Positions 30,245-40,724 of a stretch of 64,000 nt of DNA are shown here, one piece after another. The position numbers and the translations under genes were made by a program. The stretch is from Syntrophales bacterium (lineage in GTDB: Bacteria; Desulfobacterota; Syntrophia; Syntrophales; UBA2210): contig CAXXNF010000001.1 of NCBI GenBank assembly GCA_963666365.2, positions 672,001 through 736,000 on the forward strand, given 5' to 3'. The notes beneath the pieces are model-generated. The model saw only the letters and a program-made list of their open reading frames with translations. It did no database searches and was not told the origin of the DNA. Position 1 is the first letter of the stretch, and every line of letters starts with the position of its first letter.

Positions 30245-33200
30245 TCAATTCTCCATAGTACCGAGAAGGAACACCGCATCTCCCAGATCAATTCTGTCGT
30301 TCCCGGTGATGTCGGCCAGGGTTGTATCCAGCTCATCGGGACCTTTATTGACAATGATCCTCAGGATCGTGATCAAATCCGCCAGATCGGCAACGCCGTC
30401 GCCGTTGATGTCGCCCCAGCTGACCGTGCGTTCCGCCCGAAGGGGATAGCGGTGAAGCTGGGTTACTCCCGACGCCGCCTGAAAGAGCGCCGTCAGCTCC
30501 AGGGCGCCCTCCGTTCCGATGCACTGGAGATGGGGCTGACGAAAATCACCCTCGACAGGGGCGGCAATCTTTCTGAAGCCCCGGATGACCATGTTACTCA
30601 GGTCGACACCCCTGTAACAGAGATGCGTCCAATACCCGTCGCTTTCGGTCCAGGCCGCAACGAGATATTCCTTCCCGCCGTCACCGGCCGCTACCAGCGA
30701 AAGCTCCCGGGGCGCGGCGCCGGGAATGAGATTCTCATACTCCGCCCAGGCGCCCGTTCCTCCATCCCGGTAAAAAACCCCGATGCCGCCATTCTTCATT
30801 GCATAGGCAAGATAGGTCCGGTTGTTGTAACGGCAGAAGGCAAGTCCGCTGCCCGCCGACTCCCAGATGAGCAGGGAATCGGAAACTGCATCGGCCCACT
30901 CGATGAGGCGGAGCCCTCCCCTGTCGTCCCGATATGCCACCAGCGTGGGCCGCCGGGTAAGGTCATCGCTGCCGAGGGCATCAAAGCGTTCCAGGGCGGA
31001 CGGCGTCAGACTCAGGGGTGCGGACCAGGCGCTGCCGTTCCACAGCACGGCGCTGATGCCGGAACTGCCGGCGGCCGGCCCTTCTTTCTTTTCGCTGTAG
31101 ATCAGCGCGACGCTGTCGCCGTGGGGGACGAGCGTGGCGGCATCGGCCACATTCTCCAGGACAAGAACCGGCGCGGCGGCCGACCACTGGCTCCCTTCAG
31201 CATCCCCCAGGGCGTACATGAGTTTCGACGGTGGATAGAGTCCCTCTGCCTGATCCCGGGCAATCTCGGTCCAGAGCACAAGCCAGCCGCCCTGCGGAAG
31301 GGCAATGGCGTCGGCGGCCACCACGATACCCTGCACGGAAGCGACGGCGACCGGCGCACCCCGGCTCTGATCGCCTTTGCGCAGCGACGCCTTCAGCACC
31401 ATATCGCCCCCGGAGACGGCCATGTCGGTATAGAGCAGCAGGTCGCCGTCCGGCCGCGAGGCGCCCTGCGACAGGAGCAGGGGTAATGCCTTGTCAACAA
31501 CAACAGTAAGCTCATTTTTGAATTCCGCGGGGGTGCCGGCCGTCAGGTCCTGACGCTGGAGGGAAATTTCCATTTCAATGAGATCCATGGACGACTCCGT
31601 GCCGAACTGATGGTCGATTGGCCAGAGCTTCCAGAACCAGAGTTTTCTGAACTTCACCATCCATGCCTGCAGGTAGGCCTCCAGTGTGCCCCGCAAATCC
31701 CCCTTGATCTGTTTTATGATCGGCCAATCGGCATTGGGATTCACATCGATGAGCAGGGACGGGACGCCTGACCAGGGAGCGTCATCTCCGGAAACCTGTA
31801 CGGCGCCCTTGGCCCCCAGGACTCCCTTGAATGCGCTTACATGCATGCCGACGCCAAAATTAAAGGCGATCTCCAGCTTTTGGGGCTTCTCGGGATCCTG
31901 CTGTTTCGCCAGATAGGCAATTCCCGCTTCATCACCGCCGAGGAAATGCCGACGGCGCTGTTTCGTCCCGAGGTCGGGCTGTGATATATACGACGACGCC
32001 GTCGAATGTTCCTCCTCGTGGGGGAAGGTGGTTTTGAATCCGCTCAGGGAACGAACCCCGAGCAGCCCGCTGGTCGTCGCTCTGATGTCCGCGGCGCCCG
32101 TCTTGTAGATCATGAGATATATCACAGGGCCTATCTTGGGAATGTATTTCAGGTAGGGGAAGATGCTCGCCGACACCTCGACACCGGCGCTGCCTTCGAC
32201 GCCGTAAAAGACGGCCTGCTCGCAGGGTCTGTTGGCAGGATCGAATTTCACACTGTAGAGGCTCTGAAATGCGCCTCGCGGCGTCGGCGTCAGCTTTACA
32301 TCCAGCCCTTCCACATTCTTCATGAATGAGGGTGTGTAGTCCCCTTTGTTGACACTCTGTGGGGCAATGCCTCCCTTCAATCTCACGTAAAACTCTCTGG
32401 CTTCCCCCTTAAGCGTGGCCTCCACACCGCCGAAGAGGCTCAGTCCCATGAACCCCGGCGCCAAGCCGAGGATGCCGCCCAGGGAGTTGGCCATGCCTTC
32501 CTTGACCTGCGTGTCAATGCTGTAGATGTAATCAATGCTGTTGGTGGCCCGCAGGATCACTTTGCCCGTGAAGGTGGGAAGCGCGATGATTTTCCCCTCG
32601 GGCAGAAACTCTCTCAAGTCTTTATCTATCATGACCTGGGCGCCTGAAACGGCCCCCATGATCTCCGCCATGCCGGCAAAGAAAGGCGGCAGTCGGATCC
32701 CTGTCAGCTCCTTGCCCTTCCAGTTGCCCGTGTATTCATGCTGATAGATATGAACCGCGCCCAGAGCAGTCACCACGAAAAAGGCCGGACGAAACTGGTC
32801 CGGCGGGAGTTGCCAGAGCTTGACCTGCCCCGTGACCCTGGTAATGTCCGGATTGTCGCCATCGACAGTAAAATCCGTCACACGCCGATAGTAGACATTC
32901 TTGAACCCCTCCGCCTGAAGGCGTATATTTTCAAGAAAGGCCCTCGCCTCGAAGGGTTCCGGCGCCGGCGGCGGGGCAAGCATAAGAGGAGGTTCGTCAT
33001 AGCGGTTCTTCGAAAAGCTCTTCATGTCGATCAGCCAGACTTCCTTTACGCTGTCCTTGAGAACGAAGGTCCGGTCCGCACCGGGCGAACCATCGGGGCG
33101 ATCAAAGTCCGGCAGTGTAAACGTGTATTCTTTTTGCCCCAGTCCCACATCGAGGCGCCAGGTCATGGTGAGGGCGCCGGCAGCGGTGAACTCGTTGAAT

Positions 33201-36200
33201 AGGTGCTGGTTCCCCGACCTCTTCACTCCCGGAAGAAAGGCGCCCCAGCGGTTCATCGTCAGGGTGTCTGAGGCAATGAGGGGTTTTTTAAGCGGTGTCA
33301 GCGTGAGGGCGTTGTCGCCTTCCAGAATGAACTGGCCTCTTTCAGGATAGTCGGGATAGGGGACGGCATCGCCGGGCCTGAGCAGCTTTCCAAAAGGTTC
33401 GAACCCGTCTGCGCGGACCTGAAGCAGATAGGGCACATTTCGCGACAATCCGAAATCGAAGGTTCCATCCGTGTGTGTCAACGTTGAATATGAGAGTCCC
33501 TGTGCAACTATTTCCACGGTGGCGCCCGGCACATTTTTTCCGGTCTCGCTGTTGACCACGACGCCCTTCAGATAATTGGATCGCTGCATGTAGGCGGTGT
33601 ACAGCAGCATCTGCTTCCCTTCCACGGTGACGAAGGTGAGGGAGTCGTAGCCGGTTACACGGATCCATGCCTTGTGGGCGACCGACGGACAGAGGGAAGT
33701 GGTCCCGAAGGTGATCTCGGCGCCCTCAATCAATTCGTTCGGATTGTCAATATTTCTCACCTCCACCAGCATGTCGTAATAAGGCTGTGGCGGCGGGCTC
33801 AGCGGCGTTCTTTCGTCCCCTCCCTTATAAATCTCATAGGACTCTTGATCAGCATCGTAACGCAGTGAGTGCCAGACATAGCCATCCCCGTCGCGAGGTT
33901 CTTCCCATTTGCCGGCTTCGTACATTGCAGATCTCTTATACCACATCACTATGCCGGTCTCAGAGATGGCACTGGTCCGGAGGCGTGTAAATAATCGATT
34001 CCCCAGATTGCCGTAACTGAAATATTGGGGGTGTGCCACGCCCAGCAGTACGTACTTCCCCAGAGCGGCAGACCATTCATATACATCAATGTCCACCTGC
34101 GAAGCCTTGATTTCCAGTTCCGCGCTGAGGGGATGGTGGGACAGGGGGAAGAGACCCTGGTAAGGACTGTCCCATTCACTAAAGTTTTCCGGAAACTGGG
34201 TGTCCGGGAAGACACCCGGATCGGGAAAGTCATACCAGACAAATGTATCGCTGATCGCGCTATACCACTTTTTTAAACTTCCCGGCTTTATGGTGTAATC
34301 GGGATGGTTGAATTCGACGGTATAGCTGCCGGGTGTTGTGCCCACCAGTGAAGCGAAGTGGGTATACCCCTCAGCACGTTTCATGTCGGGAAAGGCGGCG
34401 CTGATATTTTCGGGACCCTTTAAATTCAGATAATGTTCACCCTCGTTATGAAAATAATAGGACAAATGGCCCGTTTCCCCCGACGTACGGTTTAATAATT
34501 CAAACATTGTGTTCTGCACAGAAACATTCAAGCTGAAGAAGAACTGCTTTTGGGGCAGCAGGAACCATCCTTCCAGACGCTGTCCCGATGAAAGACCTAC
34601 GCCGCCGATGCCGCCCGGCATAGACCAGCCTGAGTCCCATTTGGGAAATGCATACCCCTGCATAAACATCTCAGCCGATTTTTTACTGTAGGGCCACTCC
34701 TGATAATAGGGCCAACTGAGGTGTCTCCTGAAATTTGTTCCATTTGCACAATCTTCCAGGGTCAGTGCGCCGCCGAAATAATCGGTCAAGCCGGGAATGA
34801 CCACGCCATACAGGCCGGGGAGAAGGGATACCGTGAACGCACCCTTGTCATCGGTTATTACCTCAATCAGCCGGCACTCGGCGGGCATGTGGGACGCATA
34901 ATACTGGGAGGCGCGGATTTCCACTTTCTGGCGGGGCGCGGTATGCCAATCGAGACAATCTTGTTGATAATTCTGCGTGAAGTAATTATACGCGCCATCC
35001 TTGATGCCTACAAGGTGGAGGATGCCGGTAAACGTCATGGGCTCCGGCGTGAGGAACATCTGAATTTCGCGGTGTGCATCGGCGACCGCATCCACATATT
35101 CCACGGAGGTAAAATGCACGGAAAATCGATTCGACGGTCTGAAATCGCGTTTGTTCTGAAGGACGACGTCCTGAATGTCTTCCCCCTCGACCAGTATCGG
35201 AACCGTTTTAATGACACTGTCGTCCACCGTCATGAGGTAATTTCCCGGCAGGAGTTTGTCGAAGACAACCACGGCCCGGTCCTTTTCGGTTTCGTGGACG
35301 ACACTGCGGATCCGATTTATGCCGGCGGTGTTGCTGTCTTTCAGGCCCTGAAGGCGCACTTTAAGGCCGACCAGCATATCCGGGTCGTTGTAGGGACTGC
35401 TGACGATAACGGTGAGTTGCGTATCCTGAAGGGCCATATTGATGCGCACCGCATCGTTCGGCAGGGATTCAACGGTGGTTTCACTGAGCGCATAACCCAG
35501 GCGCTTGCCCCGCAGGCGCCAGTGAACGTGCGGAAGGCCCTCAAACAACACCTTGCCGAACATGTTGTGGTTCCAATTCGGGTCGTTCGCCTTCAAGAGG
35601 CCGCTGATCCCCACCTGGGCGGGTACGAGCACGTTCGTCGGGTCGTCGGGGTGGACTCCCTCGCACTCAACAATTACGGATTCAAGAATCTGGCCATCTC
35701 TTTCGGTGACGGGATTGAATCCATAGACCGACGCGATGATCCGGCTGGTTTCCGGCTTCAGCCGCACCGCAGCCCAGTGAGGGCCGGTCACTTCCTTGCC
35801 CACGTCCTCACTGTAGGATTCCCACCCAAAAATGCGATTGTCGCCCTCGTTAATGGAAAAGCGGTAGGCGCCACGGGGCATGCCCCCGAACTGTACAAAT
35901 CCCAAATCGTCGGTGGCGCCTGTCACCACGACGGCGCCGCTGCCAGATGAGGGCGCCACGGTCACGGCGACGGGGACATGTTTCAGTTTCATGCCTGTCG
36001 TGACGCAGGAAACCTCCACAAATATGTCGAAGAACGCCTCAGTGTCCTTCCGGGCAAGCTCCGCCTGCCAGCGGTTCTGCTGACCGGCGGCAATGGAGAT
36101 TCCGCTCTCGCCATTGGCGAGGTAGGCAGGGTGCCGTGTCTCCACGCTGTAGGTCCCCGGCTCGATGTTGTCCATGCGATACAGGCCGAAACCGTCCGTC

Positions 36201-36415
36201 CGGGTTGTATAAGTCCGTTCACCGGAGAGGGCGTTGACGGAAGCGCCGTCTATGGGGAGTTTCGTCTCTTCATCCACAATCATGCCGTAGAGGCTCGCCT
36301 GCTGCGCGTCCTGGGCGAAGGCGGTCTCTCCGATGGCGCAGAGACCCGAGAGAAGCAGCATGCATATAACAGTACCCCACCGAAACCACGTTGTTGTCTT
36401 TGAACCTGACGTCAT
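30245..36415 (-). CDS. Large secreted protein (~2050 aa): carboxypeptidase-regulatory-like domains, C-terminal beta-rich region and dockerin-like domain
   Basis: Signal peptide; LYGMIVDEETKLPIDGASV and LKGVVVNSETGKNVPGATV; GDINGDGVADLAD...ADITGNDRIDLGD. Confidence 0.8.
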   Translation of the reverse strand: MTSGSKTTTWFRWGTVICMLLLSGLCAIGETAFAQDAQQASLYGMIVDEETKLPIDGASVNALSGERTYTTRTDGFGLYRMDNIEPGTYSVETRHPAYLANGESGISIAAGQQNRWQAELARKDTEAFFDIFVEVSCVTTGMKLKHVPVAVTVAPSSGSGAVVVTGATDDLGFVQFGGMPRGAYRFSINEGDNRIFGWESYSEDVGKEVTGPHWAAVRLKPETSRIIASVYGFNPVTERDGQILESVIVECEGVHPDDPTNVLVPAQVGISGLLKANDPNWNHNMFGKVLFEGLPHVHWRLRGKRLGYALSETTVESLPNDAVRINMALQDTQLTVIVSSPYNDPDMLVGLKVRLQGLKDSNTAGINRIRSVVHETEKDRAVVVFDKLLPGNYLMTVDDSVIKTVPILVEGEDIQDVVLQNKRDFRPSNRFSVHFTSVEYVDAVADAHREIQMFLTPEPMTFTGILHLVGIKDGAYNYFTQNYQQDCLDWHTAPRQKVEIRASQYYASHMPAECRLIEVITDDKGAFTVSLLPGLYGVVIPGLTDYFGGALTLEDCANGTNFRRHLSWPYYQEWPYSKKSAEMFMQGYAFPKWDSGWSMPGGIGGVGLSSGQRLEGWFLLPQKQFFFSLNVSVQNTMFELLNRTSGETGHLSYYFHNEGEHYLNLKGPENISAAFPDMKRAEGYTHFASLVGTTPGSYTVEFNHPDYTIKPGSLKKWYSAISDTFVWYDFPDPGVFPDTQFPENFSEWDSPYQGLFPLSHHPLSAELEIKASQVDIDVYEWSAALGKYVLLGVAHPQYFSYGNLGNRLFTRLRTSAISETGIVMWYKRSAMYEAGKWEEPRDGDGYVWHSLRYDADQESYEIYKGGDERTPLSPPPQPYYDMLVEVRNIDNPNELIEGAEITFGTTSLCPSVAHKAWIRVTGYDSLTFVTVEGKQMLLYTAYMQRSNYLKGVVVNSETGKNVPGATVEIVAQGLSYSTLTHTDGTFDFGLSRNVPYLLQVRADGFEPFGKLLRPGDAVPYPDYPERGQFILEGDNALTLTPLKKPLIASDTLTMNRWGAFLPGVKRSGNQHLFNEFTAAGALTMTWRLDVGLGQKEYTFTLPDFDRPDGSPGADRTFVLKDSVKEVWLIDMKSFSKNRYDEPPLMLAPPPAPEPFEARAFLENIRLQAEGFKNVYYRRVTDFTVDGDNPDITRVTGQVKLWQLPPDQFRPAFFVVTALGAVHIYQHEYTGNWKGKELTGIRLPPFFAGMAEIMGAVSGAQVMIDKDLREFLPEGKIIALPTFTGKVILRATNSIDYIYSIDTQVKEGMANSLGGILGLAPGFMGLSLFGGVEATLKGEAREFYVRLKGGIAPQSVNKGDYTPSFMKNVEGLDVKLTPTPRGAFQSLYSVKFDPANRPCEQAVFYGVEGSAGVEVSASIFPYLKYIPKIGPVIYLMIYKTGAADIRATTSGLLGVRSLSGFKTTFPHEEEHSTASSYISQPDLGTKQRRRHFLGGDEAGIAYLAKQQDPEKPQKLEIAFNFGVGMHVSAFKGVLGAKGAVQVSGDDAPWSGVPSLLIDVNPNADWPIIKQIKGDLRGTLEAYLQAWMVKFRKLWFWKLWPIDHQFGTESSMDLIEMEISLQRQDLTAGTPAEFKNELTVVVDKALPLLLSQGASRPDGDLLLYTDMAVSGGDMVLKASLRKGDQSRGAPVAVASVQGIVVAADAIALPQGGWLVLWTEIARDQAEGLYPPSKLMYALGDAEGSQWSAAAPVLVLENVADAATLVPHGDSVALIYSEKKEGPAAGSSGISAVLWNGSAWSAPLSLTPSALERFDALGSDDLTRRPTLVAYRDDRGGLRLIEWADAVSDSLLIWESAGSGLAFCRYNNRTYLAYAMKNGGIGVFYRDGGTGAWAEYENLIPGAAPRELSLVAAGDGGKEYLVAAWTESDGYWTHLCYRGVDLSNMVIRGFRKIAAPVEGDFRQPHLQCIGTEGALELTALFQAASGVTQLHRYPLRAERTVSWGDINGDGVADLADLITILRIIVNKGPDELDTTLADITGNDRIDLGDAVFLLGTMEN

Positions 36416-36898
36416 CCTATGAATCCTTTCTTCCGAGAGACGGATTACAGGCGGCACGGGGTCATTCGATCAATAGAACCCTTCTGTCCATCGTCGCGCT
36501 CCCCGGTGTCCTCGCGTTGTCTCGGATAACGTACTACGGTTGGTTGCAAATGTTCTGTTTTATGGGATAGTTATCTACGGAAACTGATTGTTGCGGTGCC
36601 ATTATAAAAGAAGCAAAATTGTACGTCAACAGGAAAGAACAGGGGGAAATAGTGAGGGCTTCTCGGTGGCATTTTTTGTAAATATTATCCGAAGGGGGGT
36701 TATCGGACCGAAAAGCTCAGTCAATTCCTGCCGCACTTCCACAATTGCCCACACCGCTTCGGCGGAAATTCGATGGCCGGACCTTCCCGAGTTTACCCTG
36801 CCTACCCGTCCGCAGCGGTCCATGGCAGCGAGCCTATCGCTGGGCTTCGACCATTACTCGGCAGCATTGTCAAAACAAATACGTCCCATAAATATTGT

Positions 36899-36935: not shown

Positions 36936-37418
36936 ATGCGCAACTCGATACACTACTCCCAGGAATTGCTCTTTCTTTTGGCGGAACTTTCCCGGGCTGT
37001 GCGCTTCTGCCGACAGGACGCGGTTTTTTGCGAAGGTGTAAGCTTCACCCAGTTTCTCATCCTCGACACGATCGCTGAGGGTAAGGGTGTTACCATGACC
37101 GACCTCAACACGATTCTTTCCATTGAAAAGAGCACCGGCACGCGTCTGGTAAAACCGCTGATCGACAAAAACCTGGTGGAACGGAAGCAATCGGACAAGG
37201 ATCGGCGGACAGTCCTTTTGGAGCTGACCCAAGAGGGGATCGCAACACACAGGCGGGTATGGGATTGTTTCATCGGTTTCGCGGAAACAATAAAAAAGGA
37301 GATACCGGAAGATAAAAGCGAACAAATACGCAACGCATTAAGAATTTTTGCGCGGGCTGTGCGTACCGCATCATCGGCCTGTACCTGCTGCGATCTTTCG
37401 GAAGAATTAACACAATGA
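36936..37418 (+). CDS. MarR-family transcriptional regulator with Cys-rich C-terminus (CTCC)
   Basis: TQFLIL, IEKSTGTRLVKPL, DKDRRTVLLELTQEG winged helix. Confidence 0.9.
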   Translation: MRNSIHYSQELLFLLAELSRAVRFCRQDAVFCEGVSFTQFLILDTIAEGKGVTMTDLNTILSIEKSTGTRLVKPLIDKNLVERKQSDKDRRTVLLELTQEGIATHRRVWDCFIGFAETIKKEIPEDKSEQIRNALRIFARAVRTASSACTCCDLSEELTQ

Positions 37419-38602
37419 AACAATTTACAATAATAGATCCGAAGAGCCTAAAATCGGCCAATGGCGTTCCGTACATGGCGTCGGTCAACGAGAAGCCTGA
37501 ACCAACCTGAGGACCCACATGCGGGGTTCAGGTGAACCCGCTTCCACCGCCGAGGATTGATCAACCTTTTGTAGAAAAGGCTTTTGACACCGCAATAGGT
37601 TGTGTGCCTCAGGTCCTGTCATGCCTCACCTGGCGTGACCACGCAGGAACGCTTCGTGTACGATCGAACATAGGCCGTTTTCGTTATATCGTCGATCCAG
37701 GGCTTTATGCTCTGGGAACACCGGACGAAACTTCTCCCGTTCTGATAACGGCAAATTATAAATTAAGTTTTGACATCCTTCGTTCGTCTCTTCCGGAACG
37801 ACATGCCTGGATTCTTGTCCTGGACACGCGGGGAATCAACGTCTGGTGCGCCGCCGGAAAGGGCACTTTCAGTACCGAAGAGCTGGTCTGGCGGATTGCC
37901 GAAAGCGGTTTAACCAACGTGGTCTCTCATAAAAAAATCATCCTGCCGCAGCTAAGCGCCCCCGGCATTGCAGCGCATCTTGTGAAAAAGCGAAGCGGCT
38001 TTACAGTTCACTACGGACCGGTGCATGCGAAAGACCTTCCCGCCTACCTCGATGGGGGTTTGAAGGCCACGCCCGCCATGCGCCGCATGACATTCTCGCT
38101 GAGAGAACGGGCACTTTTAATACCGGTTGAACTGGCGTTGGCCCTTAAGGTCGGCTGTATCATTGCCGCAGTGTTTGTCCTTATGGGCGGTTTGGGAGGA
38201 CCAGCCCAATACTGGAACAATGTCGCACACTACGGTCTATATGCGGGACTCGCTTTTATCTGCAGCGTCCTGGCCGGAACGATTTTGATCCCCCTTTTAC
38301 TGCCCGTAATTCCGGGAAGGGCCTTTTCACTAAAGGGTATTATAGTGGGGCTGGGAATGGCATGCGCTCTGCTCCTCTTTCGGAATCCCGACATAAATGG
38401 CTGGTCGGGACTTCTGGAAACGATAGGCGTTGTCTTCTTTGTCACAGCCGTCACCGCCTACCTGGCGATGAATTTTACCGGCTCGTCAACCTACACCTCT
38501 CTCTCGGGGGTCAGAAAAGAGATGCGCTGGGCACTTCCCTTTGAAATCATCGCAGGCTCGGCAGGCTTTCTTATCTGGCTGGGCTCACGTTTTACAGCAT
38601 AG
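37415..38602 (+). CDS. hgcA: Mercury methylation corrinoid protein HgcA, probably with selenocysteine at codon 32 (TGA 37508-37510)
   Basis: Cap-helix motif GINVWCAAGKG, TANYKLSFD, LPQLSAPG, C-terminal TM domain with NFTGSSTYTSLSGV; followed by hgcB; ATG at 37415 overlaps the marR stop (ATGA) and is in frame through the TGA. Confidence 0.93.
37521..37541 (+). promoter_or_regulatory. Putative bacterial SECIS element
   Basis: GCGGG-G(bulge)-TTC-[AGGT]-GAA-CCCGC hairpin starting 10 nt after the in-frame TGA. Confidence 0.7.
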
Positions 38603-38616
38603 GAGAAGTATGAAAG

Positions 38617-38898
38617 ATGGCACAACTGGCATATTTGAGAAATGTAGCCACTCTCGCTCTCAATGAGAAGAAATGCACCGGCTGCGGCGTCTGTCTCGAT
38701 GTCTGCCCCCATGAGGTGCTCGCCATGAATGGCAGTCGTCGAATCACCATTATAGATCTCGATGCCTGCATGGAATGCGGGGCCTGTATGCGCAACTGCC
38801 CTGCGGAAGCCCTTTTCGTCCAGACCGGCGTAGGATGCGCCGCGGCCGTGATCAATTCGCTTCTGGGCCTGAAAGGTTTCTGCTGCACTATCGAATGA
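38617..38898 (+). CDS. hgcB: Mercury methylation 2[4Fe-4S] ferredoxin HgcB
   Basis: CTGCGVCLDVCPH, CMECGACMRNCP, GVGCAA and a vicinal CC near the C-terminus; 14 bp downstream of hgcA. Confidence 0.93.
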   Translation: MAQLAYLRNVATLALNEKKCTGCGVCLDVCPHEVLAMNGSRRITIIDLDACMECGACMRNCPAEALFVQTGVGCAAAVINSLLGLKGFCCTIE

Positions 38899-38968
38899 AA
38901 CGAGTGTTCGGGAAAAAAGAGAGTTAACGACTGACTGCTTCCTCACTTCGGAGCATAGGAGGAAAAGG

Positions 38969-40576
38969 ATGCATCTTCTGAACAGGTTGTCGAAAAGAGA
39001 AATCATAGGATTTATTTTTGCGATGTCTGTCCTTCTGTTGACACCTGCCATGACAATGGCGCTCGATTTCGACGGCAATTGGAACGGTTCCTGGACAAGC
39101 GTATACGGAACAACGGGAAGCGTCTACGGATCGATGTATCTGTCAGGAAACTCGGTCAGCGGGATGCTTACCATTACCAATACCGATTGCGGTACGGTGA
39201 GTCTGTCGATATCAGGGACACTGATTAACAACGTCCTTACCATAAATGGCTCAAAATATTGTGGCGGTTCGAACAACGAATTTCGTTTCACCCAGGGATA
39301 CTTCTCGGGAAGCACAATAAACGGAAACTATAACATTATCAGCGATGGGGACTTGTACGATTCAGGCGCCTTTACGCTCGTTCATCAACCTACCGCACCG
39401 ACTGCCAATTTCACGGCGAACACGACTTCCGGGATTGCCCCTCTGACAGTTACTTTTACCGATCAGAGTAGCGGTACCGTCAGCACCTACGCCTGGTCTT
39501 TCGGCGACGGACAGACAAGCACCCTGCAAAATCCCTCGCATATCTATCCGACACCGGGGACTTACACGGTCCAGCTCACAGTCAACGGGCCAGGCGGAAG
39601 TAATACCCAAACGCGCTCCGGCTATATCACCGTTACCTATCCCGCTCCGGTGGCTGGTTTCACTGTCGATACAACGACCGGCAACGCGCCTCTTCAGGTC
39701 AGTTTTACCGATCAGAGTACCGGTACCGTCAGCACCTACGCCTGGTCTTTCGGCGACGGACAGACAAGCTCTCTGCAAAATCCCTCGCATATCTATCCGA
39801 CACCGGGGACTTACACGGTCCAGCTCACAGTCAACGGGCCAGGCGGAAGTAATACCCAAACGCGCTCCGGCTATATCACCGTTACCTATCCCGCTCCGGT
39901 GGCTGGTTTCACTGTCGATACAACGACCGGCAACGCGCCTCTTCAGGTCAGCTTTACCGATCAGAGTACCGGTACCGTCAGCACCTACGCCTGGTCTTTC
40001 GGCGACGGACAGACAAGCTCTCTGAAAAATCCCTCGCATATCTATCCGACACCGGGGACTTACACGGTCCAGCTCACAGTCAACGGGCCAGGCGGAAGTA
40101 ATACCCAAACGCGCTCCGGCTATATCACCGTTACCTATCCCGCTCCGGTGGCTGGTTTCACTGTCGATACAACGACCGGCAACGCGCCTCTTCAGGTCAG
40201 CTTTACCGATCAGAGTACCGGTACCGTCAGCACCTACGCCTGGTCTTTCGGCGACGGACAGACAAGCACCCTGCAAAATCCCTCGCATACTTATCAGACA
40301 CCAGGATGGTACACGGTCCGTTTGAGTATCAGCGGACCGGGTGGAGAGGATACTGTAACCAAGGATTCCCTGATTGGAGCAGCCGATCCTTTATCGGATC
40401 TCAATGATGACGGAACAGTCGATCTGGCCGATGCATTGCTTGGGTTGAAAATTCTAAGCCGTTCCACAGTGTCGACCGGCCTTGACTCTCTTTCACAAAA
40501 AGATATTGACGGTGACAACAGGCTCGGGCTCGGGGAAACCATCCACATACTTCAATGGCTTGCAAAATTATTGTGA
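38969..40576 (+). CDS. Secreted PKD-repeat protein with C-terminal dockerin-like domain
   Basis: Signal peptide; four PKD domains (WSFGDG..S.LQNPSH.Y..PG.YTV.L); DLNDDGTVDLAD...DIDGDNRLGLGE. Confidence 0.9.
   Translation: MHLLNRLSKREIIGFIFAMSVLLLTPAMTMALDFDGNWNGSWTSVYGTTGSVYGSMYLSGNSVSGMLTITNTDCGTVSLSISGTLINNVLTINGSKYCGGSNNEFRFTQGYFSGSTINGNYNIISDGDLYDSGAFTLVHQPTAPTANFTANTTSGIAPLTVTFTDQSSGTVSTYAWSFGDGQTSTLQNPSHIYPTPGTYTVQLTVNGPGGSNTQTRSGYITVTYPAPVAGFTVDTTTGNAPLQVSFTDQSTGTVSTYAWSFGDGQTSSLQNPSHIYPTPGTYTVQLTVNGPGGSNTQTRSGYITVTYPAPVAGFTVDTTTGNAPLQVSFTDQSTGTVSTYAWSFGDGQTSSLKNPSHIYPTPGTYTVQLTVNGPGGSNTQTRSGYITVTYPAPVAGFTVDTTTGNAPLQVSFTDQSTGTVSTYAWSFGDGQTSTLQNPSHTYQTPGWYTVRLSISGPGGEDTVTKDSLIGAADPLSDLNDDGTVDLADALLGLKILSRSTVSTGLDSLSQKDIDGDNRLGLGETIHILQWLAKLL
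39454..40289 (+). repeat. Near-perfect 249-bp tandem repeat (~3.4 copies) encoding PKD domains
   Basis: GTTACCTATCCCGCTCCGG recurs at 39632, 39881 and 40130; only a few substitutions between units. Confidence 0.95.
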
Positions 40577-40592: not shown

Positions 40593-40724
40593 GCACTTTC
40601 CGTACAGGCTTGTGTAGGATGCGCCGCTGCCGTAATCAATTCGCTTCTGGGTCGAAAAGGTTTCTGCTGCACTATCGGAGAAAGCGAAATAGAGTCGGAA
40701 TCCGGCGCATCTGGATGCTGCTGG
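40593..40724 (+). pseudogene. hgcB: Relic second copy of the hgcB 3' end
   Basis: 40593-40677 matches 38809-38893 at 73/85 nt by hand count; reads ALSVQACVGCAAAVINSLLGRKGFCCTIGESEIESESGASGCC. Confidence 0.8.

Follow-up and report, generated by a model that had tools for sequence, protein, structure and literature searches.

The window analysed here, a stretch of 64,000 nucleotides (nt) from a Syntrophales bacterium (assembly GCA_963666365.2, contig CAXXNF010000001.1), carries the gene hgcA, whose product HgcA makes methylmercury, between genes for a MarR-family regulator and HgcB (Table 1). A mechanical list of open reading frames (ORFs) starts hgcA at a GTG, as the first-pass annotation had recorded. 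An ATG that overlaps the stop of marR opens a longer frame, MKQFTIIDPKSLKSANGVPYMASVNEKPEPT-TGA(37508-37510)-GPTCGVQVNPLP..., which contains no further stop until 38602; the translation confirmed this frame, which the same annotation had proposed, and a GGAAGA motif lies 9 nt before the ATG. The hairpin reported to begin 10 nt past the TGA was also found, with the sequence GCGGG(G)TTC-AGGT-GAACCCGC. We assign a probability of roughly 0.88 to the reading that this hgcA encodes a selenoprotein of 395 amino acids, with selenocysteine (Sec, U) at residue 32 inserted by way of the hairpin, which would act as a selenocysteine insertion sequence (SECIS).

Table 1. Positions of hgcA, its putative selenocysteine elements and the adjoining genes, counted from the first letter of the window.
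Feature	Coordinates	Strand	Basis or remark
marR-family regulator gene	36936..37418	+	ORF list; Pfam MarR match; stop TGA overlaps hgcA start as ATGA
hgcA, full-length coding sequence	37415..38602	+	395 codons and stop, with UGA 37508 read as putative selenocysteine
hgcA codons 1-31, arm upstream of the predicted Sec codon	37415..37507	+	
In-frame UGA, predicted selenocysteine 32, context P-T-U-G-P	37508..37510	+	translation
Putative SECIS hairpin	37521..37541	+	comparison with relatives
GTG, start of HgcA in the mechanical ORF list	37532..37534	+	inside SECIS loop and 3' arm
hgcB (ferredoxin)	38617..38898	+	NCBIfam NF040864

Profile searches identified both proteins of the pair. HgcA matched NCBIfam NF040863 with 433.7 bits (cut-off 275), the profile covering residues 64-393, and HgcB, encoded directly downstream, matched NF040864 with 110.3 bits (cut-off 99). 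Residues 142-149 of HgcA read NVWCAAGK, a sequence that does not vary among the 46 aligned Sec forms and agrees with N(V/I)WCA(A/G)GK, which we take to be the cap-helix motif holding the cobalt-ligand Cys. An AlphaFold2 model based on a 46-row alignment (mean predicted local distance difference test, pLDDT, 84.1; predicted template modelling score 0.77) contained five long C-terminal helices (236-257, 266-295, 304-323, 330-357 and 363-394), as predicted for the transmembrane domain of HgcA. The pLDDT of residues 1-37 was below 50, which fits a flexible arm in the model.

For comparison with relatives, 61 genomes (the window's own and 60 others) were searched, of which 28 matched the HgcA protein, and 80 further loci were taken from named genome records, mostly metagenome-assembled genomes of Syntrophales, Smithella and other Thermodesulfobacteriota. 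The cap-helix motif was found in 102 of 104 loci. After removal of the two loci lacking it (L040 and L043), of two N-masked loci (L075 and L108) and of L053, which is identical to L024, 99 distinct rows remained, a sample biased toward the kin of the window. Upstream of the NVWCAAGK motif, the first in-frame stop was a TGA at a distance of exactly 107 codons in 14 of 21 relatives' loci holding this motif. In the window, three codons inserted after the hairpin bring the distance to 110 codons, and one locus with a TGA at 113 codons (L112) was left out of the Sec count. A TGA was present in 53 of the 99 loci (36 with C-U and 17 with another residue before U), whereas 34 loci had CC or CxC, six had one Cys and six had none. 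Sec and Cys were exchanged at the same place in sister rows, as in SCUP of L110 versus SCCP of L074, and in CUP of L104 and L109 versus CCC of L100. Such alternation at one site typically marks a true selenoprotein. Conservation of Cys or TGA at this codon among homologues, which the first-pass annotation had put forward as a check, was thus observed in both forms.

In a SECIS element, the apical loop holds a G (as GU) whose distance from the UGA is fixed, and the type known from E. coli fdhF is a hairpin that begins about 10 nt after the UGA, with GGU in the apical loop and a bulged stem. The hairpin of the window has a conserved core of five base pairs, in which 37525-37529 pairs with 37534-37538 around the apical loop AGGU (37530-37533), and one bulged G in the lower stem. 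To examine it, we aligned 46 Sec loci without gaps over 40 nt from the UGA; the window was included, as were three PCUGP-type loci with the hairpin in another register. The two arms, nt 18-22 and 27-31, change together, as GGUUC/GAACC, GGCUC/GAGCC, GGCCC/GGGCC and GACUC/GAGUC. For a structure of seven pairs, 80.4% of the cells were paired, versus 69.5% after shuffling, and the covariation score was 0.412, versus 0.216, a value reached in none of the 500 shuffles and in none of the slid controls (at most 0.286). RNAalifold, unaided, returned the five-pair core with double changes in all five pairs, such as pair 20-29 (CG in 29 loci, UA in 11, UG in 4) and pair 21-28 (UA in 31, CG in 13). All five pairs form in 38 of the 46 loci, and G24 of the loop, which occupies nt 23-26 in the window, is at least 90% conserved. 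An independent metagenome sample, from which two loci cut at the 5' end had been dropped, gave all five pairs in 38 of 44 Sec loci.

The hairpin was then compared between loci with and without the UGA. Only 5 of 53 loci without a TGA at that codon formed all five pairs; four of these were Sec loci in a shifted register, and the fifth, L080 (1522-1561), keeps the hairpin intact but reads TCA (Ser) at the very codon that is TGA in its sister loci, through either a recent Sec loss or an error in the sequence. When the 46 loci were used to build a covariance model, a search of 291,792 bases recovered 5 of 7 held-out Sec loci and also L080. The model further gave a weak match (E = 0.28) to L066, a locus without TGA at the arm position; judged from coordinates only, this match lies inside hgcA and away from the homologous site. 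In the 64-kb window, the only match of the model was at 37508. The model did not match the SECIS elements of selD or of the formate-dehydrogenase-type genes of this genome, and a scan of 37350-37700 against Rfam, with E up to 10, gave no match. The hairpins past the UGAs of selD and of the formate-dehydrogenase-type genes have GGU-containing loops at about nt 22-26, and the GGU of hgcA is at nt 24-26, so that the hgcA and selD/formate dehydrogenase hairpins share layout and loop, not sequence. The hgcA hairpin resembles the fdhF type in its general features and differs from it in sequence and in having no Rfam model. The comparisons suggest that it is a bacterial SECIS essentially confined to hgcA genes with a TGA, and binding of SelB is predicted.

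The stem also appears to have left its mark on the protein. Residues at U+6 and U+9 of the arm are coupled, with GUU..AAC giving V..N, GCU..AGC giving A..S, and GCC..GGC giving A..G (37523-37540 in the window), and conservation of the peptide xQVx is limited to the Sec-type genes. These paired amino-acid changes occur because the SECIS stem forces them, a clear example of protein sequence being shaped by RNA structure.

All the genes expected for Sec insertion, for which the first-pass annotation had suggested a search, were found in the genome: tRNA-Sec (76.3 bits, gathering score 47; anticodon tca in ARAGORN), selB (361.5 bits), selA (608 bits) and selD (382.8 bits). The genome has at least five other selenoprotein genes containing UGA; selD itself has one in-frame TGA, and four formate-dehydrogenase-type genes have one TGA each. 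Among the 61 genomes searched, selA was over the cut-off in 15 of 15 with a UGA-type hgcA; this co-occurrence is weak evidence because selA was found in 56 of the 61 and is uninformative as a discriminator. Together, the covarying hairpin past the UGA and the full Sec machinery bear out the proposal that the window encodes a selenoprotein of 395 amino acids.

Several features of the region upstream of the UGA bear on whether the UGA at 37508 might instead be a true stop, with the 31-codon ORF being a leader peptide or noise and HgcA starting at GTG 37532. In each of the 17 non-CU loci, an ATG is present 25-35 codons before U, in most cases preceded by an AGGA-like motif that would serve for ribosome binding, and several loci have a stop just upstream of this ATG. 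Differences among seven close relatives were distributed over the three codon positions as 157/136/223 upstream of U and as 115/97/168 in the downstream part, so the pattern upstream of U appears coding-like, and conserved residues flank the UGA on either side. Termination at 37508 agrees with the mechanical ORF call and with the public annotation, in which 17 of the 18 proteins matching the arm profile of the clade start after the UGA (one of these is named HgcA by NCBI), and also with the hairpin not being significant when the window is folded on its own. It does not account, however, for the UGA at one codon position in two thirds of the relatives' loci, for the Cys at the same place in homologues without the stop or for a covarying hairpin confined to UGA-type genes next to complete Sec machinery, and we regard termination there as highly improbable. 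When residues 1-70 of the window arm were used as a database query, three candidates were returned, none of which scored. Since the database proteins of the clade start after the UGA, the arm and any selenium dependence would be invisible in surveys of hgcA.

Other observations weigh against the selenoprotein reading or limit its reach. Folded as a single sequence, the window hairpin did not exceed chance expectation (z = -0.51 over 61 nt and -0.27 over 40 nt), and the minimum-energy fold of the 40 nt prefers a competing pairing. The reality of the hairpin is established, at the level of sequences, by comparison with relatives and not by the window alone. A contig from a different study, 95-99% similar, spans 37380-37640 with five differences, none of them in the TGA or the hairpin; the three that lie inside the arm all alter the amino acid, as read from the codons, which indicates that the arm is loosely constrained. 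No Cys or Sec was present in the arm of 6 of the 99 loci, a database protein with a full-length arm (P0004) has Pro at the Sec position, and, according to a 2024 biochemical study, HgcA of ND132 cloned from the old start, and thus without the arm, methylated Hg in E. coli lysates. A selenolate or thiol is for these reasons not indispensable to every HgcA. The frame, the fixed position of the UGA, the covarying hairpin specific to it, the Sec machinery and the T-U clade described below can be read from the sequences and their comparison; selenium in HgcA and initiation at 37415 are predictions from that comparison, and a role of the selenium in mercury chemistry is one that we infer. The tail of HgcB in the window, moreover, is shorter than in relatives.

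The activity of the arm-less ND132 construct would also suit an optional arm, in which read-through with Sec yields the long form when selenium is present, and an internal start, at GTG 37532 or downstream, yields a working arm-less HgcA when it is not, the short form being real as well. A GTG does lie within the hairpin, its first two letters in the loop and its third at the beginning of the 3' arm, and relatives have an ATG 13 codons after U that annotators used as the start; the arms lacking both Cys and Sec in some homologues point the same way. The GTG is, however, explained by the conserved loop AGGUG, at which other Sec loci have AGUUG or AGGCG, and the translation of the window has no ATG between UGA 37508 and the folded domain. 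We consider an optional arm rather unlikely in this genome.

Under the selenoprotein reading, translation would start at ATG 37415, probably coupled to the stop of marR, and 31 codons would be translated before the UGA at 37508. The hairpin located 10 nt downstream, with its loop AGGU, would act as the SECIS and recruit SelB carrying Sec-tRNA(Sec). Sec would then be inserted at residue 32, and translation would go on through the residues encoded by the hairpin into the corrinoid-binding domain. About 40 residues at the N terminus of the predicted product would form a flexible arm bearing one selenolate.

The first-pass annotation had noted T-U in the place of the published C-U, and the translation of the window, P-T-U-G-P, bears this out. 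It had also proposed UxxxC as the motif, which we rejected as a conserved motif because Cys at U+4 occurs in only 6 of 11 members of the clade and in 6 of 17 non-CU Sec forms, with close relatives toggling between Cys and Ser at this position. No Cys was found within six residues of Sec in 9 of the 17 non-CU arms, and 5 of the 17 had none in the whole arm. The 17 comprised 12 T-U, two G-U, one N-U, one L-U and one S-U form. Together with 10 relatives of the same family, the window forms a clade of 11 (10 T-U and one N-U), supported by 92 in FastTree and by 82 in the Shimodaira-Hasegawa-like approximate likelihood ratio test of IQ-TREE. Other non-CU forms are located elsewhere on the tree, and at least five changes are needed. 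Among 13 family relatives with an HgcA match, nine were T-U, one N-U, one L-U, one a CC-type fragment and one of PCUGP type. In the metagenome sample, only 2 of 44 Sec loci were non-CU, and the T-U and other non-CU arms are therefore a minority form, concentrated in the family of the window.

Two side observations concern the distribution of these forms. Arms of the G-U and G-U-C types were found in L107 and L118, whose record titles name the cultured Desulfacinum hydrothermale DSM 13146 and D. infernum DSM 9756. The only genome of the same genus among those searched (G001) has an HgcA of PCUGP type (L041) with 49% identity to that of the window, and these two close genomes thus hold different HgcA lineages.

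An N-terminal Sec extension of HgcA has been described by Haft and Gwadz (bioRxiv 10.1101/2022.07.06.499078), who report PCUGP as perfectly conserved in the 20 of 20 genes that they examined. A 2026 review (PMC13188914) places HgcA under NF040863 with the motif CU, and the 2024 biochemical study cites the idea of a Sec extension. Full-text literature searches on hgcA with selenocysteine, selenoprotein or SECIS gave no further relevant paper. The Sec arm of HgcA as such is thus already published; the T-U variant seems undescribed, though Figure S7 of the preprint may hold non-CU rows.

The window shares with the HgcA genes of Haft and Gwadz one in-frame UGA upstream of the old start and a frame extending to an upstream ATG. 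Its 395 amino acids fall within the 363-400 of the published Sec forms, with the arm likewise before the corrinoid domain, and the Sec machinery in the genome, the U-G-P kept after Sec, the PCUGP-type codon distance from the UGA to the cap helix and the replacement of Sec by Cys in some homologues are also common to both. Thr precedes Sec in the window, unlike Cys in the published PCUGP, and the hairpin of the large group to which the window belongs (GGYYC-AGKU-GRRCC, nt 18-31) is in another register than that of the PCUGP-type loci L039, L041 and L042. The HgcA arms with Cys only (CC, CxC or CCC) have the same position and length and form neighbouring tree groups in the same 42-row set, but they have no UGA and no conserved hairpin there, L080 being the 1 of 45 rows truly without Sec that forms five pairs. 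Judged from these alignments, the window carries a lineage-specific form of the HgcA Sec arm already in print, with Thr for Cys and no other Cys consistently nearby.

The whole clade keeps Sec and the SECIS hairpin and drops the neighbouring Cys, a pattern which suggests that Sec is the residue held by selection and that the vicinal Cys is dispensable. The route of Hg to the cobalt-methyl site of HgcA is still unsettled, and the Sec arm was known only as a C-U pair, which invited a chelation model; a dispensable vicinal Cys therefore narrows the possible mechanisms. Acting jointly with the Cys tail of HgcB, the selenolate, as a soft-metal ligand, might take up Hg(II) or CH3Hg+ and hand it over to the cobalt-methyl site or receive it from there, and the arm may tie the production of methylmercury to the supply of selenium, as the first-pass annotation had suggested. 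C-U proteins of the SAO system (SaoL, SaoB and SaoC) and the C-terminal CC of HgcB likewise place a short chalcogen-rich motif on a terminal segment of proteins thought to handle organometallic or heavy-metal species. Those motifs are vicinal pairs, whereas the Sec of the window is single or accompanied by a variable Cys four residues on.

We therefore raise, tentatively and with more doubt than confidence, the idea that this HgcA lineage works with a lone arm Sec, through one-ligand chemistry instead of the vicinal-pair chelation of Hg(II) that C-U suggested. With a lone Sec, as in the 5 of 17 non-CU arms without any Cys, such chelation would not take place. If this is true, the lone selenolate could capture or release the product CH3Hg+, for which a single ligand is enough, or it could be linked for a short time to the cysteine tail of HgcB through an Se-Hg-S bridge. 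The role of the arm could then be tested directly on the forms that occur in nature, C-U, T-U, CC and no chalcogen. Compensation by HgcB for the lost arm Cys was not seen, as GVGC was present in 16 of 16 non-CU loci in which hgcB was found, and the HgcB tails of non-CU loci resemble those of C-U loci; in L126, no hgcB was matched by pattern within 500 nt. The window HgcB itself is of the Cys type at GVGC and terminates in FCCTIE.

The 3' end of hgcB in the window is altered. Its last 95 nt (38809-38903) are repeated with 83% identity at 40593-40687, 1784 nt downstream, and the two copies flank a gene (38969-40576) for a protein of 535 amino acids with four PKD domains. This arrangement suggests insertion of a 1.8-kb piece into the hgcB 3' end. 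The downstream copy reads on to ...GASGCC and then TGG, and the HgcB of the window lacks about 20 further residues, ending in CC, that are found in relatives, while keeping a CC pair near its end. Since this tail is shortened, the state of the whole hgcAB system here is not certain, and the locus might be decaying, with the Sec arm a relic without present function. Such decay would agree with the duplicated 3' end, with the loss of the terminal CC from the expressed copy, and with the window HgcA, whose terminal branch exceeds all others in the clade (0.47 and 0.38) and which carries the 3-codon insert. We nevertheless think that decay has little chance of being the explanation, given an hgcA that is intact over 395 codons and scores far over its cut-off, a TGA, hairpin and start codon that are intact and kept in the similar contig from the other study, and an HgcB over its cut-off with the CC pair retained.

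The protein encoded upstream of hgcA matched Pfam MarR with 48.8 bits (cut-off 24.6), and its C-terminal tail is Cys-rich (...ACTCC...). Because a MarR homologue was found immediately upstream of hgcA in 33 distinct loci of the 103 relatives' loci, marR-hgcA-hgcB is a conserved unit, and the MarR protein is possibly a metal-sensing regulator. Just upstream of this unit, an ORF of 2070 amino acids is located on the minus strand (30245-36457).

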